Notes: a model not told the origin generated them from the letters alone. DNA of 32,000 bases from Candidatus Iainarchaeum sp. (GCA_016205145.1 JACQJH010000001.1:180001-212000), one strand, 5' to 3'. Shown: positions 3,001 to 32,000, counted from the first letter of the stretch. A program made the numbers and translations.

Positions 3001-3823
3001 CGCACACTTCAGTGTTTTCGTTTGACTGGCAAACTCCGTCGCCGCAGCTTGCACCCGTGCCGGGGATGCTGCCGGTTGATGGAGTAAGCGTTATGCTGTT
3101 TGTCGGCTGCGGCAACTGGAATGTTTGCTCGGTAAAGCCCAGTGCAACGACAGTTGCACTCATGCCAATGCATTGCGCGGCGTTTTCGACTATGATTATG
3201 CCGTCGCCGTCTTCGTCTGAAAGCAGTTCAATCGGAATAGTGCCTTCCCTGCATGAAAGCTTCACTGTCGTGCCCTTTTTTGCGATTCTCTCGCCGGTCG
3301 GCGCCTTGAAAATTATTGTCTTTGTCTGCGGCCCGATTTCAATTGACGGGCTTTGCAATGTGAGCGTCTGTTTTTCCCTGGCGCTTGCGACAATCTTTTT
3401 CTGCAATGCGTCGAACTTTTTGCCGTTGATGACCTGCGATTTTATGAGCAGTTCGACTTCGCTGTCAAGCGGCACGGTTATCGAGAAAGCGCCTTGGGCA
3501 TCGGTTTCCGTTGAAAGGCTCTTGTCAGCAAACCTGTAATCGACCTTGACTTTTGCCAAAGCCTGCCCGGAAGCGTCTTTCACTTCGAATGGAATCGTTA
3601 TGTTTTCCTGGAACAGGTTCGGCAGGCCGCCTGAAAGCGCGCTGATGCCCCACACTCCGACCAAGAGAACGGCAAGCAGCACGAGCAAAAAGCTTGGAAT
3701 CATGCGGTCAATCGGGTCGATTGCCCTGTAGACAGGCACGACCTTGTTGATTCTGTCCAGTAAACCGTAATAGCCGTCTTCCAGCGAATAATAGATGTCT
3801 TTAAGGCTCTGAATCAGTCCCAT
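1..3823 (-). CDS. Very large membrane-anchored cell-surface protein. The 5' end is complete and the 3' end runs off the left edge (over 1274 codons). N-terminal cytoplasmic stub plus one TM helix, then repeated carboxypeptidase-regulatory-like/Ig-like beta-sandwich modules and a Cys-rich CGDGVC..EDC linker.
   Basis: Absent from the ORF track because there is no stop inside the window. I checked every plus-strand triplet in register with 3821-3823 from 3823 down to 2. None is tta/cta/tca, so the minus frame is open for 1274 codons. The ATG at 3823 is the first ATG after an in-frame TAG (3902-3904). Translation begins MGLIQSLKDIYYSLEDGYYGLLDRINKVVPVYRAIDPIDRMIPSFLLVLLAVLLVGVWGI. Later segments GKIRVIVQDEQANSV.. 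and GKIRVQVVDESGQAVEGAKVKL look like CarboxypepD_reg-type repeats. The motif ASCGDGVCQSNENTEVCAEDCSG lies at nt 2990-3046. Confidence 0.8.
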   Translation of the reverse strand, partial: MGLIQSLKDIYYSLEDGYYGLLDRINKVVPVYRAIDPIDRMIPSFLLVLLAVLLVGVWGISALSGGLPNLFQENITIPFEVKDASGQALAKVKVDYRFADKSLSTETDAQGAFSITVPLDSEVELLIKSQVINGKKFDALQKKIVASAREKQTLTLQSPSIEIGPQTKTIIFKAPTGERIAKKGTTVKLSCREGTIPIELLSDEDGDGIIIVENAAQCIGMSATVVALGFTEQTFQLPQPTNSITLTPSTGSIPGTGASCGDGVCQSNENTEVCAEDCSGQQPEPREGPAGATGKIRVIVQDEQANSVTAASFNVSLKDNDGSAIESKQTEYYGQVSFKNLAPKKYAVTVSDENALYSSYTQAGIQVNPAGETLVTATVSRNVRARLSVQVVEKGTNNAIANADVEVRNSSGVAIEKGNTGSEAKTLSFAFFDPQQSLIVYAIQDDYFYAQTGIASLSGEQSLKIELEKVTPENSGKIRVQVVDESGQAVEGAKVKLLFGEGSAAGSLTPYAVQSTDANGTAGWQGIREEVLYPSAEKWPAYTAARELAKKIAKKELNEFKVTLAVGDADVSVEARSEQNELLQNSQAEFFDMAGQSIARYDMPQGTLSQKIRAGRKVFAVITSPNHVKAQTIPKMLWPDTLAEFKAELPLQGSISQPSVSFEGMLENYSEAQAMESGKRYLALFKFKLPSAVQQAGIHFRTGDTNTVSGDALYIGEIDAGNAKIEKGSAFNPPLGSDAENLLESSASVGKWADAKFSTTEPEVVYAAFEVVVKKSTAPMTPLPMHYRAWTASGDTYSRMPADAGLGSARETAAKKELFAQTFEINEFLEGVPVTCGQDFCYAGEDVLDEQSNLFLDDKPYALTVFGPYLLNFVIKNNSDAQFNGIQLIIASVDSHGADNESILIRKYSLLDADSHENANANFNAFKSPAIPLGGFSKGKSVLAKLWIEGKKLESSGLEARIVSGGQTVYRKKIEFKTASKEDMALAVEPSAVNAFEQKDILVTVKDSSGKPLSGVLVKAKKILADASESWLACVSGNNCMSSDNGEVIVHVPASSPLTQIVFGAEKIGYWLDKPLALTVSGQILSFEPEKLQSRLDTRAKTNETISTILTATSHIGETLKLTKSDYKEKSSRFFGVLDYTAMLSFLQTKTNGLEIKPLQAKELADIIKTQLVSAGIVDRQESLDGWVWLTFQNQAFAKTYDVFIPLNVAIGFGETPADKCVSVDNFEWNDSTDAGKTGPHISNISNNCQFEGAPIALDGLQFTYHPAPYQGDV

Positions 3824-3835
3824 CCGAATCCCGCG

Positions 3836-3890
3836 CCGCCACTGCCGGCGGGTCAGCGCCAAGGCGTATCGCTGTCGCGATACGCCGAGC
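3836..3890 (+). repeat. Double-hairpin repeat unit, copy 1: GC hairpin, CCAAGG linker, then a 10 bp stem-loop and CCGAG.
   Basis: ccgcc/actgcc/ggcgg at 3836-3851. ggcgtatcgc/tgtc/gcgatacgcc at 3863-3886. Confidence 0.7.
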
Positions 3891-3928
3891 AACAGATCCC
3901 GCTAAAACTCGGATGTATAATAGCGTTT

Positions 3929-3942
3929 AGATAAATAAAAAG
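3929..3942 (-). promoter_or_regulatory. TATA-like box upstream of the giant surface-protein gene.
   Basis: Minus strand ctttttatttatct, about 105 nt upstream of the ATG at 3823. Repeat copy 1 lies in the intervening leader. Confidence 0.3.
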
Positions 3943-3992
3943 ATTGCTCTTGCGCCCAAATGAAATTTTCTGATTATAAAAAAGGGCTGCCC

Positions 3993-4058
3993 GGCATATT
4001 GCACAAGCAATATGCCTTGGCTCCGAACGCAGGGGGCTCTGCCCCCTCGCACGCCCCC
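3993..4058 (-). repeat. Double-hairpin repeat unit, copy 2 (inverted relative to copy 1), with a G-run hairpin module.
   Basis: ggcatattgc/acaa/gcaatatgcc at 3993-4016, then the ttgg linker. agggggc/tct/gccccct at 4031-4047, then cgcacgccccc. Confidence 0.7.
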
Positions 4059-4080
4059 AATCATTTACTACTGCTTACTC

Positions 4081-4131
4081 GGCGTATTGCACAAGCAATA
4101 CGCCTTGGTTCCGAACCAGCCGGACGGAACC
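4081..4131 (-). repeat. Double-hairpin repeat unit, copy 3 (inverted relative to copy 1).
   Basis: ggcgtattgc/acaa/gcaatacgcc at 4081-4104, then the ttgg linker. ggttccg/11 nt/cggaacc at 4107-4131. It abuts the stop codon at 4134. Confidence 0.7.
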
Positions 4132-4133
4132 GG

Positions 4134-6887
4134 CTAGTTTCTCATTTTGATTATGAGCGCTATGACGAGGATTATGATGATTATGATGAGGCCGGCTGTC
4201 AGGGCGTTGTCCGCGATTATCGCGAAAGCAGTTGAAACAGCGTTGCCTTCTACCGGTGCGGGCTTGAGCTGAACGGTTTTTGTTACCTGCTCGTTACCGG
4301 CAGTGAACCTGACTGGAACGCTGACTTCCTTGTCAATGCCCTTGTCCTGTTTGACAGTGAAAGCGATTTTCCTGGTTTCGTTTGCGGCAAGCGTCAAATC
4401 CTTTGTGGTTTCGCCGCTGAATTCCTTCGGCAGGCCGATTTCGATTGTGCCCGAAACAAGGCTGTCGGACTTGTTCTGCAACGTTACAGTGATTTCGGTT
4501 TCATTGCCTTTCGCTTCGGTTTCAACGCCGATCGTTACCCTGTCCGCAAGCCTCTGCCCTGAAACGAGTTTCAACTGCGAGGTTTTTTCGCTTATGCTGC
4601 AGCCTGAAAGCGTTGTGTCGAAGACAATCTGTGCGCTGCCTGAAAGCAATTGCACGTCGATGAGCTTTGCAGTGAAAGAATTTTTCGGCACGGTGATTGT
4701 GTCGGGTGCAGCGGTTGCGCCGATGCCCTTTACGATGATTGTCGCGCTTCTCCCGAGGGGGTTTTCGATTGAAACCAGGACCTTGTCCTCTTTTGCCAAG
4801 GCAATTTCTTTCGGCACTACAAGTTTGAAGTCCGGGCAGCTCGCCTGGTCGACATAGCCGTTAGTGTAAGCATAGCCGTTGTTGTTGAAATTGTCGCTGC
4901 CATTGTAATTGTTGCCGGAGCCGCCGTAACTGTTGTCGACCCTGACCGAAAAGCTTTCGCTTATGCCTGAGCACTGCCTGTTGCCGGCGCTTTCGCTGAA
5001 ATAGCCGCTGGCCCTGACAGTAGCAGTGCCTTCCACATTGCTCCTGTCAAACGAGTCGACCCGCACTCTTATGCGGCCTCTTCCGCCCGGCGCAATCGAA
5101 TTGTCGTAGTCGAGTTCGCGGACATTGAAGTAGCCGCTGTTGTCGGTTGCGCCCGCGCTTGAAATGTAGAACCTGCTGTTCGAATTGTTGACTATGTCGA
5201 ACGACGCGTATTCCGTCGAATTCGTGCCAAGCGAAACGTTTCCGGCGTTTATGTAAACGCTTGAGCAGCTTGACGAAAAGTTCGCGGCATTGTCGTTGAG
5301 GTAGACGGTTATTTCCTGCAGGCCGATGTCGTCAAAGCTCACTGCCGGGCCGCCCTCGAACCTGCCCCTCACCTTGTAATATGCCTTGACTGTCTTGTCG
5401 CCCGTGAGAACGGATGACACGAACCTGAGCCTTATGCGGCCGCTTCCCCTGCCGTCAATCTGGCTGTCGTAAGTGGAAACGCTTGGGCTGAAATCGGAAC
5501 TCGGAGTGTAAGTCTGCACTTCCTCAACGTAAAACCTTTTTCCGGAATCGTTTCTTATCGTGAAGGTTTCAATCCTCTGGTCGTTTTCGTTCAATGTTAC
5601 CGAATGGTTGTCAAAGCTTATGTCGGAAGCATTGCCGGAAGCGCCGTTGTTGCTGATGAAAACATTGAATCTTTCATCGCCTATTTCGGAGAACGAGCAT
5701 GTTCTCCCGTCCGAAAAGCGGCCCCTCAGTCCGGCTGTAGCGCTCGAACTCTGGTCGAAGTCGACGCTGCCGGCCGAAATCCTGGCTTCAAGCTCGCCCG
5801 AGCCGTTCGCGGCTATGCTTGGGCTGAAATAGCCTTCGGTCGCATTGAAGTAGGAGCTGTTGTCGCTGACATTGACTTCGTCAACGTAAAACGTCCTGTC
5901 GGAATTGTTGCGCACGGAAAACCTTTCGGTTACGCTTTCGTTTTCATTCACGTAAACTGAGTGCGTGTTAACTGTTATGTCGGCGCAGCTTGAATTGCCC
6001 GAGCCGCCGCCATTGCCGTTTCTTGGCAACACTCTGACAGTTCCTGTCATTTCGGAATGGAACCTGCAATGGTAATAGTATGTGCCTTCAGTGTTGAAGG
6101 TTTTCCTGTAAGTGCCGTTGTAGTTCAGGGTTCCGCTGTCGCCGCCCGTGTTTTCAAACGTGACCGTGTGCGAGTTGTTTCCGAGGTTGACCCATTCGAC
6201 TGTGTCGCCCTCATAAACCGTTATCGTGCCCGGGCTGAAATAGTTGTCCCTTATCTGCACGTCGGCGTTGCCATAATAGCCGCCGCCATTGCCCCCGCCA
6301 TAATTGCCGCCGGAGCCTCCGCCGGAAACGTTCACGTAAGCCCATTCTTCGTCCTGTATGACGTTGTCCTCTTCAAGGCCCGCGTAAACCACTATCTTGT
6401 AATTGTTGTACCTGTCGTCAATCCTGAAAGCGTCGCCCCACTGCACTTCGCCGTCAGCGTCCTGGTAGAGTGCGACTCCCTTGTTGGGATAATTGAAATA
6501 GTATGCCGAGCCCGGGGCAAAGTATGCCTCTGAATAGTTTCCAAAAGTGTAACTGGTGTTGGCGTAGTTGTAGGATTTCGGGTACAAATAGAATCTTTTC
6601 GTTTCCGTCTGCTTGATGTACTCGTAGCCATTGCCGCGGTCGCCGTAAATTTTAGCATAGGCGAAGACTTTTGCGTAAGGCTCGTATCCTGCCGTGTTCA
6701 GGTAAAGGAATGCCCTGACGTCGACAAGGTCATTGTCGCTTCCGCTTGGCTGATAGGCCCAGTCCGCGCCCGAATCCGTGCGGGCCTGCACGAAAGAAAT
6801 GTCAACTGAATAGTTTGAAGCCGCAAAAACGGTTTGCGTGAGAAAAAGCAAGACGAATGCGATTATGAGATGCCTGAACAGTTTCAA
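4134..6887 (-). CDS. 917 aa secreted, C-terminally anchored surface protein with a cupredoxin (type-1 blue copper) domain and three internal repeats of about 115 aa.
   Basis: TTG start at 6887, 8 nt downstream of GGGGG. Sec-type signal MKLFRHLIIAFVLLFLTQTVFA/AS. Residues about 209-287 (nt 6027-6263), GDTVEWVNLGNNSHTVTF...GTYYYHCRFHSEMTG, match the cupredoxin ligand pattern H...C-x2-H-x2-M. Repeats lie at nt 4932-5990. G/N/Y-rich linkers and many N-x-S/T sequons are present. Hydrophobic C-terminus LTAGLIIIIIILVIALIIKMRN. Confidence 0.85.
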   Translation of the reverse strand: MKLFRHLIIAFVLLFLTQTVFAASNYSVDISFVQARTDSGADWAYQPSGSDNDLVDVRAFLYLNTAGYEPYAKVFAYAKIYGDRGNGYEYIKQTETKRFYLYPKSYNYANTSYTFGNYSEAYFAPGSAYYFNYPNKGVALYQDADGEVQWGDAFRIDDRYNNYKIVVYAGLEEDNVIQDEEWAYVNVSGGGSGGNYGGGNGGGYYGNADVQIRDNYFSPGTITVYEGDTVEWVNLGNNSHTVTFENTGGDSGTLNYNGTYRKTFNTEGTYYYHCRFHSEMTGTVRVLPRNGNGGGSGNSSCADITVNTHSVYVNENESVTERFSVRNNSDRTFYVDEVNVSDNSSYFNATEGYFSPSIAANGSGELEARISAGSVDFDQSSSATAGLRGRFSDGRTCSFSEIGDERFNVFISNNGASGNASDISFDNHSVTLNENDQRIETFTIRNDSGKRFYVEEVQTYTPSSDFSPSVSTYDSQIDGRGSGRIRLRFVSSVLTGDKTVKAYYKVRGRFEGGPAVSFDDIGLQEITVYLNDNAANFSSSCSSVYINAGNVSLGTNSTEYASFDIVNNSNSRFYISSAGATDNSGYFNVRELDYDNSIAPGGRGRIRVRVDSFDRSNVEGTATVRASGYFSESAGNRQCSGISESFSVRVDNSYGGSGNNYNGSDNFNNNGYAYTNGYVDQASCPDFKLVVPKEIALAKEDKVLVSIENPLGRSATIIVKGIGATAAPDTITVPKNSFTAKLIDVQLLSGSAQIVFDTTLSGCSISEKTSQLKLVSGQRLADRVTIGVETEAKGNETEITVTLQNKSDSLVSGTIEIGLPKEFSGETTKDLTLAANETRKIAFTVKQDKGIDKEVSVPVRFTAGNEQVTKTVQLKPAPVEGNAVSTAFAIIADNALTAGLIIIIIILVIALIIKMRN

Positions 6888-6952: not shown

Positions 6953-7003
6953 CTATTTTCTTAACTGGACAAAATTAACACAATCTCCTTTTGATGTGGC
7001 CTT

Positions 7004-7024
7004 GGTTTTTTTGGCAAAAAAACC
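7004..7024 (-). terminator. A/T hairpin with T-runs downstream of rtcB.
   Basis: ggttttttt/ggc/aaaaaaacc, preceded on the minus strand by tctttcttttat. Confidence 0.3.
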
Positions 7025-7088
7025 ATAAAAGAAAGACTTTTTTTCTTAAACTTCATATATTTATATTAAAGATATTGTATTGAAGTTT

Positions 7089-9964: not shown

Positions 9965-10002
9965 ACTGAAAAAATTAAAGAAGAAATGACTGTTGCCAGT
10001 CA
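9965..10002 (-). terminator. Hairpin overlapping the EF-1alpha stop codon, followed by a T-rich tract.
   Basis: tgactg/gcaa/cagtca at 9987-10002, then tttcttctttaatttttt on the minus strand. Confidence 0.45.
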
Positions 10003-11277
10003 TTTCCCTGCTTCTTTTTTGACAATGCTCTGCACGAGCCCTGCCGCAACGGTCTGGCCCATGTCCCTTATCGCAAAGCGGCCGAGCTGCGGGAACATCT
10101 TGTATTCCTCGACAACAACCGGCTTCAACGGTACAACCTTGACGATTGCCGCGTCGCCTGCTTTCAGGAACTTGGGGTTTTCTTCCTTGACCTGGCCCGT
10201 TTTCGGGTCAAGCTTTTTCTGCAGCTCTGTCAGGGTGCATGAAAGCTGTGCGGTGTGCATGTGGAACACCGGAGTGTAGCCGACCGGAATTGCGGTCGGG
10301 TGCGACAGCACCACAATCTGCGCAGTGAATTCCTTTGCGACTGTGGGCGGGTTCTTGTCGTGTCCGACAACGTCGCCCCTTGAAACGTCTTCTTTTGTCA
10401 GGCCGCGGACATTGAAGCCGACGTTGTCGCCCGGAACCGCTTCTGAAAGCTGTTCGTGGTGCATTTCAACGGACTTCACTTCGCCGGATTTTCCCGACGG
10501 CATGAATACGATCTTGTCGTTCGGCTTCAAAACGCCTGTTTCGACCCTGCCGACCGGTACAACGCCGATGCCCTTGATGTTGTAAACGTCCTGGATTGGC
10601 AGCCTCAGCGGCTTGTCAACCGGGGGTTCCGGCGCAACAAGGGTGTCGAGCGTGTCAATGAGCGTCAGGCCCGTGTACCATTTCATGTTTTCGGTTTTCT
10701 TGGCGATGTTGTCGCCCTTCCAAGCCGAAATTGGAACGAACTTGATGTTGTCTTCCTTGAAGCCCACGCCCTTCAAAAGCTTGAGTATGTCGTCGTGGAC
10801 CGTCTTGTATTTTGCCTCATCGTAGCCGACTTCGTCCATTTTGTTCAATGCGACAACGAGCTGCTTGATTCCCATGACCTGTGACAGGAACGCGTGCTCT
10901 TTTGTCTGCGCCTGGATGCCATCCTTTGCTGACACGACCAGGACTGCGGCGTCTGCCTGCGATGTTCCGGTTATCATGTTCTTGACAAAGTCCTTGTGGC
11001 CCGGTGCGTCAATAATCGTGAACTCGTTCTTTTTGGCCTTGAACTTTTTGTAAGCGACGTCAATGGTTATGCCCCTTTCCCTTTCTTCCTTGAGGTTGTC
11101 CATTGCGAACGCGAACGCAAACGTGCCCTTGCCGAGCGCCTGCGCTTCCTGTTCAAGCTTCCTGTAATCCTGTTCGGACAGTGCTCCGGAATCGTACAGA
11201 AGCCTTCCGACGGTTGTCGACTTTCCATGGTCAACATGCCCGATGAAAACCAGGTTGATGTGGTTTTTTGCTGCCAT
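10000..11277 (-). CDS. tuf: Translation elongation factor EF-1 alpha.
   Basis: [21 protein letters not shown]..., DAPGHKDF and NKMD GTPase motifs. ATG at 11277 lies 8 nt after GGAGGTG. The track start at 11340 is an upstream alternative-start artefact. Confidence 0.95.
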
Positions 11278-11465
11278 TAAAACTGCACCTCCAAATGTGA
11301 CCTGCAACAACGAAAACGCTTTTGCATTGTGAAAACGCAAAACGCATTTTTTGGGGAATGTGCCGCGTAACAGCCCACAATCCGGCCGAATTTGCCCCTA
11401 ACAGCCATCTTGTGTTTGTAAGCCAGGTGTCTGCAGCTGATTTTACTCTATACTTCCTGTACCAG

Positions 11466-11478
11466 AATATTTAAATAA
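11466..11478 (-). promoter_or_regulatory. TATA-like box upstream of tuf.
   Basis: Minus strand ttatttaaatatt, about 190 nt upstream of the tuf ATG, which implies a long leader. Confidence 0.3.
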
Positions 11479-11574
11479 CATAGCCCCTTTGCCTTCCGCT
11501 TTTTTGCGTGTGGGGTGCTGCTTGCAAAAACAAAATTTTGATGCGAAAAGAAAGCAGGCAGGTGTTGCGCGAAT

Positions 11575-11616
11575 GCAAAAAGAAAGCAGATGGGTACGAC
11601 GCAGCGCGGCGTACCC
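11575..11616 (-). terminator. Hairpin plus T-rich tract after the candidate micro-ORF.
   Basis: gggtacg ... cgtaccc at 11592-11616 with inner cgc/gcg pairs, then atctgctttctttttgc on the minus strand. Confidence 0.35.
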
Positions 11617-11640
11617 GTCGCGCACCAGCCGGGCGTTCGG

Positions 11641-11721
11641 CTAGCAGCAGCAACAGCCTTCCTTGTGCGAATGCGAAGCTTTTTTCTTTGCGCCTGATTT
11701 TGCCTTTGTTGAGCTTGCCAT
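11641..11721 (-). CDS. Candidate 26 aa micro-protein MASSTKAKSGAKKKASHSHKEGCCCC (hypothetical).
   Basis: ATG at 11721 lies 8 nt after GGGGG. A TTTAAAAC box sits at 11786-11797 upstream. TAG is at 11641-11643. A hairpin plus T-run follows (11575-11616). Too short for the ORF track, and no homology was recognised. Confidence 0.25.
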   Translation of the reverse strand: MASSTKAKSGAKKKASHSHKEGCCCC

Positions 11722-11834
11722 GTTTTTTTCCCCCGTTTTTTTGTCAGCCGCGATTTGGCGTGCCTGAATTAGAATTGTCCGCTGGGTTTTAAACTTTTAT
11801 TGTTGGGTTTCGGGCCTGGTGCGGGTGGCATGCA

Positions 11835-11876
11835 GGCGATAAAAAATAAAAGCCATCCTGCTTTTTTTTGCAGGAT
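11835..11876 (-). terminator. Hairpin plus T-run immediately after the EF-2 stop.
   Basis: The minus-strand RNA has stem AUCCUGC, loop A8, stem GCAGGAU (11855-11876), followed by GGCUUUUAUUUUUUAUC. Confidence 0.5.
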
Positions 11877-11877
11877 T

Positions 11878-15172: not shown

Positions 15173-15211
15173 AAAAATCACCATTTGCCTTGCCTGACAT
15201 CCTCAAAACTT

Positions 15212-15250
15212 TCATCTTATTCTTATATCCTCAAAACCGTAATCACGCGC
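15212..15250 (-). pseudogene. Diverged duplicate of the last 11 codons plus stop of nusA.
   Basis: The minus strand reads cgt gat tac ggt ttt gag gat ata aga ata aga tga (RDYGFEDIRIR*). The live nusA end at 15310-15345 reads cgc aat tac ggt ttt gag gaa gta aga ata cgg tga (RNYGFEEVRIR*). Confidence 0.6.
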
Positions 15251-15277
15251 AGGGGACTCCGTCCCCTCGCACGCCCC
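15251..15277. repeat. G-run hairpin module, same family as 4031-4058.
   Basis: aggggac/tcc/gtcccct followed by cgcacgcccc. It differs from the 4031 copy by a compensatory G:C to A:T pair in the stem. Confidence 0.65.
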
Positions 15278-15309
15278 TGGAAAAACACAATTTTTGTCCT
15301 GCAATCTTT

Positions 15310-15723
15310 TCACCGTATTCTTACTTCCTCAAAACCGTAATTGCGCTTTGCTATTTCCCTTACCCTGGCAACCTTTTTTTTCGACTCCATGAGGGTTCTC
15401 CTGCTTTCCGAGGAAATCCTGACCGACACTGCCTTTCCGCTTTCGCCCCTGCGCGATTCAACGCCTTCAACCGCCATCGGCGCCAAGGCCTTTTTGAAAA
15501 ACCTTTCAGGGCTCTTCGAATATTCGACTATCTCGATTTTTTTTCCAAGCCTTTCGGAGAGCCTTTTCACGTTCTGGGCGCCCTTGCCGATTGCCCTGCC
15601 CACATCTTTTCCCCAGACAAGGAAAGAGACAGTGGAACCGTCAACAATGCAGTCCCTTGCCCCGACACCCGAAATTTTTTCAAGCGCGTTCATCAGCATT
15701 ATCTCCTCTAAGCCAAGCTTCAT
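15310..15723 (-). CDS. nusA: Archaeal NusA-like KH-domain transcription factor.
   Basis: Two KH-type GxxG segments (VGRAIGKGAQNVKRLSERLGKKIEIVEY). Conserved position between L30e and S12. Confidence 0.87.
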   Translation of the reverse strand: MKLGLEEIMLMNALEKISGVGARDCIVDGSTVSFLVWGKDVGRAIGKGAQNVKRLSERLGKKIEIVEYSKSPERFFKKALAPMAVEGVESRRGESGKAVSVRISSESRRTLMESKKKVARVREIAKRNYGFEEVRIR

Positions 15724-16107: not shown

Positions 16108-16163
16108 CATTTTTTACTCCAGCGCAATAAGACCTGTCCGGGCAAGCATTTTAAAAAGCAATC

Positions 16164-16249
16164 CCCGGCGATTTCGTCCGCCGGGTTCGACGACGGGTAT
16201 TCTTCGCAAACCATTGGTTTGCGACGTGCCCAGAATCTTCGGATTCTGG
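16164..16249 (+). repeat. Triple hairpin module downstream of rpoA''.
   Basis: cccggcg/atttcgtc/cgccggg at 16164-16185. tcgcaaacc/att/ggtttgcga at 16204-16224. ccagaatc/ttcg/gattctgg at 16230-16249. Confidence 0.7.
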
Positions 16250-16294
16250 AGCATCGCTTCGCTCAATACCCCTCTGTCCGCCTTTAAATCTCTT

Positions 16295-25547: not shown

Positions 25548-25655
25548 TTATTTGAGGCTCTTCGCTTTGGTTGTTTTTTCCAATTCTTTAATCAACTTTT
25601 TTTCTTCTCGTGTTAGATTCTGGTCACCAAAGTCAGAATTTTTGCCTATGCTCAT
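25548..25655 (-). CDS. Hypothetical 35 aa K/E-rich peptide (MSIGKNSDFGDQNLTREEKKLIKELEKTTKAKSLK).
   Basis: Its ATG overlaps the MNT stop as ATGA (25652-25655). The track's 63 aa version from 25739 would overlap MNT by 88 nt. Confidence 0.35.
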   Translation of the reverse strand: MSIGKNSDFGDQNLTREEKKLIKELEKTTKAKSLK

Positions 25656-25969
25656 TTTATCGCCTTTCCCGTCGCCACCGCCTCGCTGACGATGCCTATC
25701 CGCCTGGCTTTTTCCTCGAATTCTTCGGGCGTATAGCACAGGCTTTCAAGCTGCTGTTTTTCGTTCCAGTAATCGTACATTTTTTCCATTCTGCTGAAAA
25801 AATTGGTCCCCTCAAACTTCTTGCTGACGATTATGAAATCATAGTCGGATTCTTCCAAAGCCCCGCCTTTGGCCCTTGAACCGAAAAGGATTATTCTGGC
25901 GTCCGAGAAATCCTTTTTGACTTTGTGCGCGAATGCAGCGATTATTTGCTTATCTGTTTTTCCGCCCAT
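25652..25969 (-). CDS. Minimal nucleotidyltransferase (MNT, Pol-beta superfamily), antitoxin-type partner of HEPN.
   Basis: ILFGSRAKGGALEESDYDFIIV matches the hG[GS]-x9-13-DhD nucleotidyltransferase motif. AGAGGT lies 6 nt before the ATG. The gene overlaps the HEPN gene by 28 nt. Confidence 0.85.
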   Translation of the reverse strand: MGGKTDKQIIAAFAHKVKKDFSDARIILFGSRAKGGALEESDYDFIIVSKKFEGTNFFSRMEKMYDYWNEKQQLESLCYTPEEFEEKARRIGIVSEAVATGKAIK

Positions 25970-26325
25970 TCAAAAACCTCTTTTGCGTTTTCAAGCAGTT
26001 CTTCCGCCATTTCGTCGCTGTAAGCGTCTTTTGGAATCGCGTTTGCGGCATCCGGATAGCGTGTTTGCACGTAGTGCGGATTGATTTTCCTGCAAGCTGA
26101 AACGATTTTTTCCGGCGCTTCAAGCTCTTCGGCCAATGCAATAATATTGTGCAGTGTCGTGCCCTTGTTCTTTTGCAGGATAAAAATAGCTTTCAAGGCC
26201 TTTTCAGCCGCCTGCTGGCAGTAAAACGCGCATGCGTAATAGACATCCTGCGAAAAAAGGATTTTTGCTGTTTCGAGGTCGTCTTCCGCCGCGTTAAGCC
26301 AGTCTAGGACTTCCTTGCGCATCAT
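25942..26325 (-). CDS. HEPN-domain protein (toxin-type partner of MNT).
   Basis: All-helical, 127 aa. CRKINPH matches R-x4-H, followed by YVQTRYPD, which is typical of small HEPN proteins paired with MNTs. Confidence 0.82.
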   Translation of the reverse strand: MMRKEVLDWLNAAEDDLETAKILFSQDVYYACAFYCQQAAEKALKAIFILQKNKGTTLHNIIALAEELEAPEKIVSACRKINPHYVQTRYPDAANAIPKDAYSDEMAEELLENAKEVFEWAEKQISK

Positions 26326-28054: not shown

Positions 28055-28115
28055 CAAAAAAACCGTTCAAAAATTTAGGCCGGCAATTGTTTTAAAGCTT
28101 GCCTCGCCGTCATCG

Positions 28116-28192
28116 CCCGGCGGGTGCGAAACCAAGGCCTTCGTTGCAAAATCTTGGATTTTGCGACGTGCCCAGAATCTTTGGATTCTGGG
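28116..28192 (+). repeat. Hairpin module downstream of the Q/G-rich protein gene, homologous to 16164-16249.
   Basis: cccggcggg, then gcgaaaccaagg. cgttgcaaaatc/ttg/gattttgcgacg at 28142-28168. cccagaatc/tttg/gattctggg at 28171-28192. Confidence 0.7.
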
Positions 28193-28262
28193 GCATCACT
28201 GTTGTGAAAGACCGAGTGAGCTAATTTTCAATATTACTGTGCGAAAAGAATTTTTTTTTGTT

Positions 28263-30659
28263 TCAGCTTGCCAGCCTTCCGAAAATGCCGAACAGGTTGT
28301 TGAAATTATTGCTCTCTTCTCCGAGGCTTTTTATCTGCTCGTCAAGCAGTGCAATCGTTTCCTTGTCGGCTGAGCCGCTTGCCTCAAGCTTTGCCTTGAT
28401 TTCATTCAGCTTTTCCGATCTTTCCTTCAGTTTTGCCGCATAATCGCCGTTGCCAACAAGCTTGTCAACAAACCCAAGCTTCTCCTTGTCCTGCACGGTC
28501 ATGTCGGCAGTGGCGCCAAGCTGGTTTGCAAGCGCGGGATCGGATTCCGCCCATTTGGATGCAATCTTGTAAAGGTCTTCCTGAACTCCAATTTTGGCTT
28601 CCCCGCCGTATGCAACGCCGAACTTCCTGCACATGTTATCGACTACAAGCCTTGCTGTCTGATCGGGGTTCCTTTCGGCATTAAGGCATTGCTTTGCCGC
28701 CTGCTTTTTGGCTTCGCACCTCAAGGCAGCTTCCGCCTTGCATTTTGCCGCCTCAAGCCTCATCCTGTCCAAACCGGCTGAAACCTGGCTGCCGGCCTGC
28801 CTGCACATTGAAGTAGCCTGCGCTTCACTTGGGAAAAACCTTGTCATGTTCTGCGCGTCGCCCAAAAACTGTTCGACTATTTCATCATCGGTCATTTCGC
28901 ACAATTCTTCAGGCGACGGTCCCGGTCCCATGGGTCCGCCGAAACCGCCTTGCGGTCCTTGCGGCCCGAAACCCTGGCCGCCAAAGCCCTGTCCTTGTCC
29001 GCCCTGCATTCCGCCAGGTCCGACACCCGGCCTTATACAGTTGCCCTGCTTGCTTGGGTCAGGATATTCGCCTGGCGGGCATTGCCCTTGCCCCTGCTGG
29101 TTCGGTCCGCCGAATGGCCCGCCCTGTCCGAATCCTTGTCCCTGCTGCTGCATAGGCTGGCCTATTCCCTGATTGGGGAACGGTCCCTGGTTTGGAGAAT
29201 TCGGCAGCATGAGGCCGTTCGGCCCCTGTTGCATTCCGAATCCGAAATTGTTAAGCACGTCGTTTGTCTGCATGACCGGCTGGCCATTCTGCATTTGCTG
29301 CGGCTGGACGTTTTGCTCTGCAACCTGCTGCTGTTCAGCCTGTGGAGCCTGCACTATTTCTTCAGCGCTTTGGCTCAGGCTTTCATCCGCTTTCTGCTCG
29401 GCTTCCTGGAGCCTTGCAAGGATTGCAAGCATTGTCGGCGAAGAAATTGAAATTTCATCCGAAGCGGTTGCACCGCCATCGGTTGGCGCGGGTGCTGGTT
29501 CTGGTGCCGGGGCAGGTGCGGGTTCAGGCGCTGGAGCCGGTTCTGGCTGCGGAGCAGGCTGCTGCTGTTCCACCTGCGGTTGCTGCTCGCCTTGAGGCTG
29601 TTGTTGCTGCTGGTCTTGCGGCGGCACGTATCCAGGCGGAGGAGAATTGCACTGGTAGCTTCCGGTATTGCAGTTCCATCCGAACTCACATTGTGGCGGC
29701 TGTCCCTGGCATCCGTTTGGTCCGGGTCCCTGTTGCGGTGGACCGAATCCCTGCGGTTCGGACCTTTGCTGTTCCCAGCCGCGCTGTTCAAATCCCGGTC
29801 CTTGGTTGCGATATTGAGAGTTAATGCATCCGCCCCTTCCATCCGGTTCAGAGCCTTCGCCACATGGCATTTGCTGGTTTCCGCCCTGTCCCGGTCCGCG
29901 CGGCCCGAAATTTGTCGGCAACTGCGGTCCGAATCCTTCCTGGCCCTCGAATTCTTTCATTTTTGAGCATTCGTCTCTGAACTTTGAAATCTGCTGCCTT
30001 ATCTTTTCCTTCTGCTTTTCAAGCTGCCCGGCGATTTTTTCCTTTTCCTTGTTCAGCCTGGCAAGGCAAACATTTTGAATCAGTTCGGGTGTCATGTCCT
30101 TCAAAGTCAGGCTGTCAGGGTCATAGCCTGCGTCCCTCATGTCCTTTTTCTTGTCAGCAGGAATTGGCATTTTTCCTTCGCTGATCTGGCTACAGAACAA
30201 CTGCGAATCAGAATCGCACGAGCTTGACTCCGCGTCTATTGTGCCGCACGCGGTTGGAGCATCCTCTTTTATCGCGCCGACAATTTCGTTTGTCAAAGCG
30301 TCCCTGTCGGTTTTGCAGCCCTCAATGAACTTTGCGCTGTTTGATGCAACCCAAGTGTAGGCGGTCGTCATTGCCTTTGTGACGTCCTCTTCAGCCACGT
30401 ATTGCGAGTCGGCAAAGCTTGATGAAACATAGCTGTCTATTCCCATGCCGGAATCAAAGCCGAATCCGCCAAATCCCTGCTCGTCTTGCTGTCCGCCGAA
30501 GCCTTGCTGCTGGCCGAAACCCTGCTGGAAACCCTGGCCTTGGCCCTGCTGCGGAAACTGTCCCTGCTGCGGAAACTGCGCAAACGCCAAGCCGGCAAAA
30601 ACCGCGAACGCGAAAAGCAATGCGATTATTCCAATGCCTTTTTTCTGCAAATTGACCAC
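28263..30659 (-). CDS. Secreted low-complexity protein of about 798 aa, rich in Q/G/P and FG, with Cys-containing and coiled-coil modules (hypothetical).
   Basis: Proposed GTG start at 30659 gives the signal peptide MVNLQKKGIGIIALLFAFAVFAGLAFA/Q. It lies about 27 nt downstream of a TTAAATA box, so the mRNA may be leaderless. Alternatives are TTG at 30665 or 30650 and ATG at 30782. The track ORF start at 31085 overlaps the reductase gene and reads through the hairpin repeats. Confidence 0.72.
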   Translation of the reverse strand: MVNLQKKGIGIIALLFAFAVFAGLAFAQFPQQGQFPQQGQGQGFQQGFGQQQGFGGQQDEQGFGGFGFDSGMGIDSYVSSSFADSQYVAEEDVTKAMTTAYTWVASNSAKFIEGCKTDRDALTNEIVGAIKEDAPTACGTIDAESSSCDSDSQLFCSQISEGKMPIPADKKKDMRDAGYDPDSLTLKDMTPELIQNVCLARLNKEKEKIAGQLEKQKEKIRQQISKFRDECSKMKEFEGQEGFGPQLPTNFGPRGPGQGGNQQMPCGEGSEPDGRGGCINSQYRNQGPGFEQRGWEQQRSEPQGFGPPQQGPGPNGCQGQPPQCEFGWNCNTGSYQCNSPPPGYVPPQDQQQQQPQGEQQPQVEQQQPAPQPEPAPAPEPAPAPAPEPAPAPTDGGATASDEISISSPTMLAILARLQEAEQKADESLSQSAEEIVQAPQAEQQQVAEQNVQPQQMQNGQPVMQTNDVLNNFGFGMQQGPNGLMLPNSPNQGPFPNQGIGQPMQQQGQGFGQGGPFGGPNQQGQGQCPPGEYPDPSKQGNCIRPGVGPGGMQGGQGQGFGGQGFGPQGPQGGFGGPMGPGPSPEELCEMTDDEIVEQFLGDAQNMTRFFPSEAQATSMCRQAGSQVSAGLDRMRLEAAKCKAEAALRCEAKKQAAKQCLNAERNPDQTARLVVDNMCRKFGVAYGGEAKIGVQEDLYKIASKWAESDPALANQLGATADMTVQDKEKLGFVDKLVGNGDYAAKLKERSEKLNEIKAKLEASGSADKETIALLDEQIKSLGEESNNFNNLFGIFGRLAS

Positions 30660-30712: not shown

Positions 30713-30768
30713 CCGGCGGTTTCGTCCGCCGGGTCCGAAACCAAGGCGTATTGCTGATGCAATACGCC
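30713..30768 (+). repeat. Double-hairpin repeat unit, copy 4 (same orientation as copy 1).
   Basis: ccggcgg/tttcgt/ccgccgg at 30713-30732, then the gtccgaaaccaagg linker. ggcgtattgc/tgat/gcaatacgcc at 30745-30768, then gag. Confidence 0.7.
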
Positions 30769-30841: not shown

Positions 30842-32000
30842 TTACCAGCCGTAGCTTTTCGCGCGCGAATACTGCAGGGCTGAGAAAACGCGGATTGTTT
30901 TGAGCTTTGGCAGTTTTGGGTTTGCCAGCAGCCTCAATCCGACAAGCAGCTTGTCCGAAAACGTCAGGCTTGTCAGGTTTTCCGGCATTATGCCGCCCAT
31001 TTCGTTCAGCTTTTTCTCGTCGAAAGTGTAAAGGCTTTTCTTTCCGCCGATAATGGAACCGTAATTGGGGAACTCCTTTCTCCATTTTTCAGAGTATTCC
31101 GCGAAAGCCTTTTCCGAAAAATCGTTTTGCTTCGCCGCCTTCGCAATCGTTTCCGCGCAAAGCCTGCCTGACATGAGTGAAAGAGCCGTGCCGCCTTCAA
31201 ACATCGGGGACGTAAAACCTGCCGCATCTCCGACCAAGGCAAACCTTTCCCCGCACGTTTTCGAAACCGGCCCGGATTCCGGTATGAGCCCGCCGAAAGT
31301 TTTTGTCACCTTCTTGTCCTCGAGCCGCATTTCCCTGATGAAACCGTCAAGGAATGCCTTTGCTTTTCCCTTTTCATTCGTAACTATTCCGACATTCGCC
31401 CTGTTCCCGCTTTTCGGGATAATCCAGGCATAACCGTGCGGCGCGAATTTGGTGGAAAAAAAGAAGTCGATTAAATCCTGGTCGACCAGGCCGTGCATTT
31501 CAACCTGCACGCCAATCACTGTTTCAGGTTTCCTGTTGATTCCGGTTTTCTGCGAAAAAACCGACGTCGGGCCGGAAGCATCGACAACGGTTTTGGCAAT
31601 GAATGTTCCGCCGCTGGTCTGTATGCGCCATCCTTCCGTGTCTTTCACGAACTGTTCCGCCCGCGTGTTCAAAAAGATTTTTGCGCCGGCTGCCTGCGCC
31701 TCGCCCACAATGAACCTTTCAAACTTGTGCTTTTCGAGCACAAAGCCTTTTTCGCGCACAACGGAATTCTTTCCGTTCGGAAAAATCACGCGGATGCCTT
31801 CAACGCGCTTTGAAATCACGCTGTCGGGCAGCTTCAGGCCGATCCTGTCAACCGCCAGTTCGGAAAGGCATTCGCCGCAGTGCACGGGTTCGCCAACCGC
31901 GGGGTGCTCTTCAATCACGCAAACACTGAGGCCGAGCCTGGCGCAATGCAATGCAGTTGAGCCTCCGGCCGGGCCCGAGCCTATGACCGCGACATCAAAA
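30842..32000 (-). CDS. Geranylgeranyl reductase family FAD-dependent oxidoreductase (archaeal lipid saturation). The 5' end runs off the right edge.
   Basis: Reading beyond the track start gives FDVAVIGSGPAGGSTALHCARLG, a GxGxxG FAD fold. FALVGDAAGFTSPMFEGG lies downstream. The frame is open to position 31999. Confidence 0.87.
   Translation of the reverse strand, partial: FDVAVIGSGPAGGSTALHCARLGLSVCVIEEHPAVGEPVHCGECLSELAVDRIGLKLPDSVISKRVEGIRVIFPNGKNSVVREKGFVLEKHKFERFIVGEAQAAGAKIFLNTRAEQFVKDTEGWRIQTSGGTFIAKTVVDASGPTSVFSQKTGINRKPETVIGVQVEMHGLVDQDLIDFFFSTKFAPHGYAWIIPKSGNRANVGIVTNEKGKAKAFLDGFIREMRLEDKKVTKTFGGLIPESGPVSKTCGERFALVGDAAGFTSPMFEGGTALSLMSGRLCAETIAKAAKQNDFSEKAFAEYSEKWRKEFPNYGSIIGGKKSLYTFDEKKLNEMGGIMPENLTSLTFSDKLLVGLRLLANPKLPKLKTIRVFSALQYSRAKSYGW

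Follow-up and report, generated by a model that had tools for sequence, protein, structure and literature searches.

Among described systems, the closest analogue of the element presented here would be the repetitive extragenic palindromes (REPs) and bacterial interspersed mosaic elements (BIMEs) of bacteria, including the REP doublets forming hairpins (REPINs) that are mobilized by REP-associated tyrosine transposases (RAYTs); membership in these families is not supported. REPs at the 3' ends of genes affect termination and mRNA stability. What defines their superfamilies is a tetranucleotide tag, GTAG or CGTC, that stays unpaired at one end of the palindrome (PMC3733652). BIMEs of Stenotrophomonas combine several palindrome types with linkers, keep their palindromy through complementary changes, and show strong dynamics between strains (PMC2817692). 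In complete genomes surveyed in 2018, RAYT-type subclasses were confined to bacteria, and the Y1 transposases of archaea were all of the IS200 type (PMC6006769). RepRanger (2025) lists "REPs" in Euryarchaeota and Crenarchaeota, in a class that takes in any intergenic stem-loop not predicted to be a terminator (PMC12306157). Here we describe short hairpin modules in the intergenic gaps of a 32-kb window (the whole stretch of DNA analyzed, 32,000 nucleotides [nt]; GCA_016205145.1, JACQJH010000001.1:180001-212000) from a metagenome-assembled genome of Candidatus Diapherotrites (DPANN).

On balance, and with little more than even confidence, we favor the view that these hairpins form a lineage-specific family of short palindromic DNA repeat modules, similar to REPs and BIMEs, that has been spread and reshuffled at the DNA level. 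Modules are gained, lost, or swapped between close strains. If our view is correct, mosaic colonization by palindromic repeats, so far described for bacteria, also occurs in a reduced DPANN archaeal genome, and such an archaeal mosaic family would prompt the search for whatever mobilizes its modules.

The hp1 unit in the window

All counts given for the window cover 32 kb of a 613-kb contig, whose exact length is 612,963 nt. A gap of 310 nt separates the ATG of a giant gene (3823-3821, minus strand) from the stop codon of a gene for a protein of 917 amino acids (aa; 4134-4136, minus strand). Three hairpins with perfect stems of 10 base pairs (bp) had been noted inside this gap by an earlier reading made from the sequence alone, here called the sequence-only reading, and we found all of them in place:

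3863-3886: hairpin copy 1, GGCGTATCGC/TGTC/GCGATACGCC, perfect 10-bp stem, 4-nt loop
3993-4016: hairpin copy 2, GGCATATTGC/ACAA/GCAATATGCC, perfect 10-bp stem, 4-nt loop
4081-4104: hairpin copy 3, GGCGTATTGC/ACAA/GCAATACGCC, perfect 10-bp stem, 4-nt loop

The pattern GGCRTATYGC-N4-GCRATAYGCC matches the window four times, against 0.00 matches expected from 100 shuffles, and the fourth match (30745-30768) lies far from the three-hairpin gap. We refer to this hairpin as hp1. In the common orientation, the consensus of the larger unit reads CTC-[GGCRTATYGC N4 GCRATAYGCC]-TTGG-YYYCGNACC-[5-7 bp GC stem, 6-8 nt loop]; M2 denotes the typical second hairpin. Units were scored with a covariance model, R1, built from seven of them:

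3829-3891, minus strand: unit c1, with hp1 (3863-3886), an unpaired TTGG (3859-3862 in plus-strand numbering), and a weak GC hairpin CCGCC/GGCGG (3836-3851); 63.3 bits, E 2e-13
3988-4028, plus strand: first part of unit c2, with hp1 (3993-4016), TTGG, and CTCCGAAC; antisense to the flanking genes
4076-4139, plus strand: unit c3, with hp1 (4081-4104), TTGG, TTCCGAACC, and M2 AGCCGG ACGGAA CCGGCT (4118-4135); 81.1 bits
30710-30773, minus strand: unit c4, with hp1 (30745-30768), TTGG, TTTCGGACC, and M2 CGGCGG ACGAAA CCGCCG (30714-30731); 88.2 bits

In every copy of hp1, the 5' flank reads (A/G)C(T/C)C and the 3' flank reads TTGG. A CCTTGG linker had been described at this place; the motif is present, but two of its bases belong to the stem and only TTGG is unpaired. 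Units c1 and c4 share the minus strand with all flanking genes, and c2 and c3 read on the plus strand, in agreement with the earlier observation that one of the three units in the gap (copy 1) points the other way.

Copies in other genomes

Loci from related genomes were graded by the identity of RpoA'' to that of the window: 96% for L011/L012, 90% for L010/L004 (L004 and L010 are one locus), 69% for L018, and 69-73% for the more distant relatives as a whole. A 96% relative occurs in the groundwater project PRJNA268031; the source samples of the window are represented by runs SRR12113383-85. With the covariance model we recovered full units at c1 to c4 of the window, twice in L002, and once each in L004, L006, and L019. 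Partial versions, with M2 only or containing a further module, hpB (see below), were recovered from two more gaps of the window, termed regions A and B, and from L002. A recurrence beyond the three-hairpin gap, expected by the sequence-only reading, was therefore borne out by the fourth copy in the window and by five full units in close relatives, the proteins of which are about 90% identical. In the loci of the 69-73% relatives, the model found no units. We counted 14 perfect hairpins with stems of 8 bp or more in the window, where shuffles gave 2.2, and 4 in the 69% relative, where 1.6 were expected. Because the units are absent from the 69-73% relatives, and the 69% relative shows only background hairpin density, the module family is young and limited to one lineage.

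A scan of metagenomes of the Joint Genome Institute (JGI) yielded three true members (L002, L004, and L006), all from sample Ga0066639; three further matches (L003, L005, and L007) lie on unrelated contigs and were judged to be chance or coding matches. The scan pattern, in which two variable stem positions were left free, was too strict: a variant at L002:203-225, with pair 6 changed from A:T to T:A and a 3-nt loop, escaped it and was found later. Among 185,579 species genomes scanned with GGCNTATNGCNNNNGCNATANGCCTTGG, the single match came from Hafnia psychrotolerans (L001, 4394-4425), a 12-bp hairpin AAGGCGTATTGC GGGC GCAATACGCCTT followed by GG, with the same arms as hp1. The 8-kb locus contains this hairpin only once, and we judged it a chance match because about one random match is expected for 20 fixed bases in 596 Gb. 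Scans of viral contigs with four module patterns gave no matches.

At L002 (160-560), an isolated M2 stands 13 nt ahead of the 5' end of a tRNA-Ala(TGC) gene. An antisense full unit begins 2 nt past the 3' end of this gene, and a further full unit of like orientation is found about 330 nt upstream, which leaves the tRNA gene and its promoter between two direct repeats of the unit.

Could the hairpins be chance structures, an assembly artefact, or degenerate CRISPR repeats? The single exact matches in Hafnia, L003, L005, and L007 show that a chance origin is possible in huge databases. But four matches in the window against none expected are not accounted for in this way, and the same units are present in independent assemblies from JGI, the European Nucleotide Archive (ENA), and Logan. 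Measured from start to start, c3 follows c2 in direct orientation after 88 nt, and c1 lies inverted at a distance of 130 nt; the spacing is irregular, uniform spacers are lacking, and no cas genes were found in the window, in line with the earlier dismissal of CRISPR. We tested these explanations and rejected them as scarcely tenable.

Other modules and their combinations

At least five types of hairpin module could be distinguished, namely hp1, M2, hpA, hpB, and hpX. The additional ones are located as follows:

4028-4057, plus strand: hpX copy 1, the second hairpin of c2, CGCAGGGGGC TCT GCCCCCTCGCACGCCCC; not M2
15248-15277, plus strand: hpX copy 2, between a KH-domain nusA-like gene and rps12
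16162-16249, minus strand: region A, after the rpoA'' stop codon, with hpA (16230-16249), hpB (16204-16224), and an M2-type hairpin (16164-16185)
28101-28192, minus strand: region B, after the stop codon of an open reading frame (ORF) of 940 aa, with hpA (28171-28192), hpB (28146-28164), CCTTGG-TTTCGCACC (28123-28137), and an M2 variant

Region A is composed, in this order, of hpA (CCAGAATC N4 GATTCTGG), CACG, hpB (TCGCAAACC AAT GGTTTGCGA), and the M2-type hairpin (CCGGCGG ACGAAAT CGCCGGG, 21.2 bits), with TTTTTAAAA 6 nt farther on. The M2 variant of region B reads CGCCG GGCGATGA CGGCG (28105-28122; 24.6 bits), and the hpA-CACG-hpB blocks of the two regions (16218-16255 and 28160-28197) share 95% identity. 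CGTC is found in front of hpB, but its TC forms part of the stem. The two hpX copies are 90% identical and differ by one compensated pair (G:C to A:T); an hpX-like module also precedes the unit in L006, and M2 variants recur in L002, L006, and L011.

The separable pieces are hp1, the linker of TTGG plus CGNACC, M2, hpA, hpB, and hpX, and they were seen in the combinations hp1+M2, hp1+hpX, hpA+hpB+M2, and hpA+hpB+CCTTGG+M2. The sequence-only reading had seen three double-hairpin units built on one plan, each with a GC-rich hairpin. This description did not hold: the second hairpins are not homologous (M2 in c3, hpX in c2, and a weak 5-bp hairpin in c1), and the units are a mosaic of separable modules that are also found apart. 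Four hp1 units and about 11 modules were counted in the 32 kb; by our own tally, modules make up roughly a fifth of the approximately 2.4 kb of intergenic DNA in the window. Orientation is mixed for the hp1 units, with c1, c4, and the L010 unit sense and c2, c3, and both L002 units antisense; hpA, hpB, and M2 of regions A and B are all on one strand. Every copy of the five module types, in the window and at the related loci, sits in an intergenic gap, and the restriction to such gaps suggested as a check thus applies to all copies covered here.

Base pairing in the stems

The paired differences reported between the three hairpins of the gap (pair 4, G:C versus A:T; pair 8, T:A versus C:G) are present, and the compensatory pattern persists in the larger set. 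In the stem of hp1 (stem 1), all 90 cells of nine copies are paired; three pairs change on both sides (G:C/A:U/U:A, A:U/U:A, and U:A/C:G) and one-sided changes number zero. Five of the six pairs of stem 2 vary on both sides. The observed pairing values were reached by none of 500 shuffles, and slid registers are only 32-50% paired. The alignment used here was fitted to the model, and c4 and the L019 unit are counterparts and hence not independent copies. Since the scan pattern had left two stem positions free, the mirrored variants from metagenomes are a fair test at those positions. The copies of hpB differ by an indel that is likewise mirrored on both arms (AAACC/GGTTT versus AAAATC/GATTTT).

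Seven of the ten stem-1 pairs are invariant, and eight loop sequences occur among the nine copies. Invariant pairs next to free loops indicate that the stem sequence is constrained beyond pairing alone. The earlier conclusion that structure and not a protein-binding word is maintained can therefore be retained for selection on pairing, but not for the exclusion of sequence recognition. As far as the sequences go, the pattern would fit recognition of a sequence-defined hairpin or arm-to-arm copying at the DNA level, and ordinary selection on a strand-specific RNA seems to explain it less well, because units occur in both orientations relative to transcription and stem 1 contains no G.U pair (0 of 90 cells).

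The symmetry of hp1 also raises the possibility of a palindromic operator, at which a dimeric regulator of the adjoining surface-protein genes would bind double-stranded DNA through two half-sites of 10 bp separated by a 4-bp spacer. The fixed length and free sequence of the spacer, the conserved half-sites, and the position of two window copies upstream of genes for secreted or surface proteins would agree with such a function. Independent drift of half-sites, however, would not yield variant positions that are all mirrored and never one-sided. Moreover, other copies adjoin a tRNA gene or follow rpoA'' or a reductase gene, and hp1 always comes with TTGG and mostly with a second hairpin. An operator is therefore very unlikely in our opinion.

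Even less probable is a role of the units as genes for small non-coding RNAs, or as processed fragments, with promoters of their own. The predicted folds of c2, c3, and c4 are strong, with z-scores of -4.5 to -5.8 against shuffles on either strand (c1 is marginally stabler than shuffles, z about -2), a TATA-like box lies upstream of c2 on the plus strand, and one M2 variant has a G.U at the loop-closing pair on the unit strand. What does not fit is the lack of a consistent promoter before the units, their mixed orientation relative to neighbors, the absence of G.U pairs from stem 1, and the separate occurrence of modules in differing orders. An Rfam scan of the whole window at gathering thresholds gave zero matches, and over 3780-4180 the best hit with E values up to 10 reached 15.4 bits against a threshold of 58.6 bits.

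Two further structural ideas were discarded. A pseudoknot between GGUUYCG and the M2 loop CGRAACC, with one apparent covariation (c3/c4), leaves no connecting loop, so it is an alternative fold at most. Readings of the unit as tRNA-like, K-turn, dif/Xer site, or CRISPR repeat were dropped as the defining motifs are missing.

Gain, loss, and conservation between strains

The gap between rpoA'' and rpl7ae could be compared between the window and three grades of relatives:

Window (100% RpoA'' identity): hpA, hpB, and M2
L011/L012 (96%): a different hairpin and M2 variant b, as in region B of the window
L010/L004 (90%): other GC hairpins and hp1-TTGG-M2
L018 (69%): 2 nt only

A promoter-like box, TTTTTAAA, and the rpl7ae leader stay aligned across the window, L011/L012, and L010/L004. 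In the gap between the nusA-like gene and rps12, the window carries an insertion of about 98 nt with hpX, made up of 72 nt of new sequence and one copy of a 26-nt repeat. The direct repeats (15218-15243 and 15316-15341) flank the new sequence and duplicate the 3' coding end of the upstream gene. This insertion is absent from L010 (90%), where the gap measures 5 nt. As a separate observation, the last approximately 30 nt of the nusA-like gene are present threefold in the window (15180-15345), copy 1 ending the gene and copies 2 and 3 following the hpX insertion, and as a single copy in the 90% relative.

The opposite behavior was found for c4. Its counterpart in L019 (90% relative) shows 0 differences over 60 nt from hp1 to M2, whereas the surrounding intergenic DNA has 11-12 differences in approximately 145 positions (about 8%). 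By our calculation, the chance of zero change in these 60 nt at the flank rate is about 0.007, and c4, at least, appears to be held by selection. Among Logan contigs of the same strain, 8 of 16 ends lie at most 2 nt from a module, as expected if modules are repeated elsewhere or polymorphic in the population. Modules would account for assemblies of this lineage breaking at intergenic gaps and could be used as strain-level markers.

Placement relative to genes and signals

About 92% of the window is coding, and its genes include split rpoB and split rpoA, those for the elongation factors EF-2 and EF-1alpha, RtcB, archease, and ribosomal proteins. The genes on both sides of the three-hairpin gap encode signal-peptide, immunoglobulin (Ig)-like, and cupredoxin features that fit surface proteins; a homologue search with the giant protein, encoded to the left of the gap, gave no matches. 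In co-directional gaps, the stop codon is followed by the hairpin module or modules and, 0-25 nt on, by a T-run or TATA-like box. This order holds for regions A and B, c4, L010, L011, L006, and, on the minus strand, for the inverted c2 followed by GGGCAGCCC-TTTTTTATAAT; at the same sites (at c2, its end), M2 or hp1 stands 0-25 nt before boxes of the TTTTTAAA type. At c4, the geranylgeranyl-reductase gene ends with its stop codon on one side of the unit, and the following gene has its TATA-like box on the other; at c3, the stop codon of the 917-aa gene (4134-4136) shares bases with the M2 stem. The exception is c1, which, as already stated by the sequence-only reading, has a TATA-like box (about 3925-3937) on one side and the start codon of the giant gene (ATG, 3823) on the other. 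If transcribed, this placement suggests, the modules would be hairpins of the 3' untranslated region (UTR), or of the 5'-UTR in the case of c1.

A hairpin followed by a T-run is seen in L010 (M2, then TTTTT), in region A, where T5 comes 6 nt later, and on the minus strand past c2 (T6); directly behind the hairpins of c4 and region B it is absent. A terminator scan of 3600-4400 gave a single match, the M2 hairpin of c3 on the non-coding plus strand.

Single-copy perfect hairpins unrelated to the modules were also observed at gene ends (9983-10006, 11855-11876, and 7003-7025). Two of them precede T-rich runs, GAAATGACTG TTGC CAGTCATTTC at the EF-1alpha stop and ATCCTGC T8 GCAGGAT after EF-2; the third, TGGTTTTTTT GGC AAAAAAACCA, follows RtcB. 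The lineage seems to use gene ends with hairpin plus T-run generally. To our knowledge, terminators in uncultured DPANN archaea are essentially unknown, and hairpins that mark transcript ends would aid the annotation of transcription units in these organisms.

Such placement is what one would predict if the modules were dedicated cis-acting RNA hairpins that, together with the T-run, terminate or stabilize the upstream mRNA and are kept by selection without being mobile. Their position between stop codons and T5-6 runs or TATA boxes, the terminator-like score of the c3 M2, the unrelated hairpins with T-runs at 9983-10006 and 11855-11876, the unchanged c4 counterpart amid diverging flanks, and the freely varying but still paired sequence of stem 2 all agree with this explanation. 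It does not, however, explain the near-identical stem-1 sequences at unrelated loci, the swapping of modules at one gap, or their absence from 69-73% relatives with the same genes. Nor does it account for c1 in a 5' leader or for an insertion with flanking direct repeats, and no T5 run follows closely behind the hairpins of c4 or region B. Taken together, we consider non-mobile transcript-end hairpins unlikely.

Comparison with known repeat families and possible mode of spread

The modules resemble REPs and BIMEs in being short (about 25-65 nt), GC-containing, intergenic, and present in both orientations. Like BIMEs, they combine several palindrome types and short linkers in varying order, differ in length and content from strain to strain, and preserve the palindrome by compensatory changes; like REPs, they are located at the 3' ends of genes. 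The modules differ from REPs in several respects: no copy of hp1 carries an unpaired GTAG or CGTC tag, the stems found here are perfect whereas those of REPs are imperfect, the carrier is an archaeon, and no associated transposase was identified in the window. Successive units do not alternate regularly in orientation as in BIMEs (c2 and c3 are direct, c1 is inverted). The archaeal "REPs" of RepRanger are likewise intergenic palindromes, but that survey describes neither the hp1 family nor a mosaic organization. The earlier statement that no known element is recognized thus remains valid with respect to Rfam, yet overlooks the likeness to REP/BIME mosaics, even though the modules fall outside the defined REP families.

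Miniature transposable elements with inverted repeats (MITEs) of archaea and bacteria share with the modules that they are small, non-coding, intergenic, multi-copy, insertion-polymorphic, and hairpin-forming. But no terminal inverted repeats bound our units and no short target-site duplications were seen; the units (about 60 nt) and modules (24-30 nt) are smaller than typical MITEs, and the one datable insertion has a 26-nt duplication. Paired DNA uptake sequences of Neisseria and Correia-type repeats likewise present a conserved 10-mer as an inverted pair, with a terminator hairpin at gene ends. In contrast to the Neisseria uptake sequences, the stem variants described here are mirrored on both arms, which is not required by a sequence-only signal, and we know of no DNA uptake system in DPANN archaea.

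If the modules are indeed DNA repeats, they would probably be spread and reshuffled by a trans-acting enzyme that recognizes hairpin shape and stem sequence, for example a single-strand transposase of the HUH/Y1 type; template switching at hairpins during replication would be an alternative agent. Either would lead to Watson-Crick stems, to changes and an indel mirrored on both arms, and to free loops. With perfect stems, modules would fold in transcripts in either orientation of insertion, and as stable putative 3'-UTR hairpins (5'-UTR for copy 1) they would help to define or protect transcript ends.

Several points weigh against the DNA-repeat reading that we favor. Public scans, with their strict pattern, returned few copies, and the counted region represents 32 kb of the 613-kb contig (the host genome size, roughly 1 Mb, is an assumed value). 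The window encodes neither a tRNA gene nor a transposase gene, which agrees with the earlier remark that no transposase lies nearby, but the transposase negative rests on these 32 kb. The lack of the GTAG/CGTC tag and of terminal inverted repeats in the hp1 unit counts against it as well, as does the fact that no target duplication was seen except the single 26-nt one around the hpX insertion. Breaks in Logan contigs could stem from strain polymorphism and not from repetition, and the conservation of c4 and the regular placement upstream of a T-run or TATA box would equally fit a purely functional cis-element.

A more far-reaching version of the same idea is put forward only tentatively. Here, the modules would belong to an active archaeal REP/BIME-like system, copied or recombined by a hairpin- and sequence-specific enzyme new to archaea, or by hairpin-templated synthesis that rewrites both arms, and the host would have recruited them as a standard transcript-end or insulator element that separates its tightly spaced genes.

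Further features of the window

Upstream of rpl7ae, the leader contains a conserved element, GCGCTGGAG(T)AAAAAATGAGAAGGCGC (16125-16099, minus strand), that is also present in L010, L011/L012, and L017. Its core, GCUGGAG...UGAGAAGGC, is kept even in a 73% relative, in which the apical part is swapped for a different hairpin. The element has no Rfam match; presumably it could be a kink-turn (K-turn) by which L7Ae regulates its own mRNA.

The gap between the EF-2 and EF-1alpha genes (11300-11877) measures about 570 nt, against 152 nt in L018 (69%). It contains several GC hairpins unrelated to the modules and a short ORF (11721-11641, minus strand) that follows a GGGGG motif and encodes MASSTKAKSGAKKKASHSHKEGCCCC. 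At 25652-26325, where GC content is at its lowest in the window (0.41), a HEPN gene is paired with an MNT-type nucleotidyltransferase gene, likely a toxin-antitoxin system. The geranylgeranyl-reductase gene (30842-32000), with its N-terminal FDVAVIGSGPAGG motif at 31999-31961, extends past the right end of the window, so the listed ORF of 369 aa is incomplete. Downstream of c4, the ORF at 28263-30650 encodes a protein with a signal peptide, a very high content of Q, G, and P, repeated tracts of PAPEPA and QGQGFG, and cysteines that are conserved.

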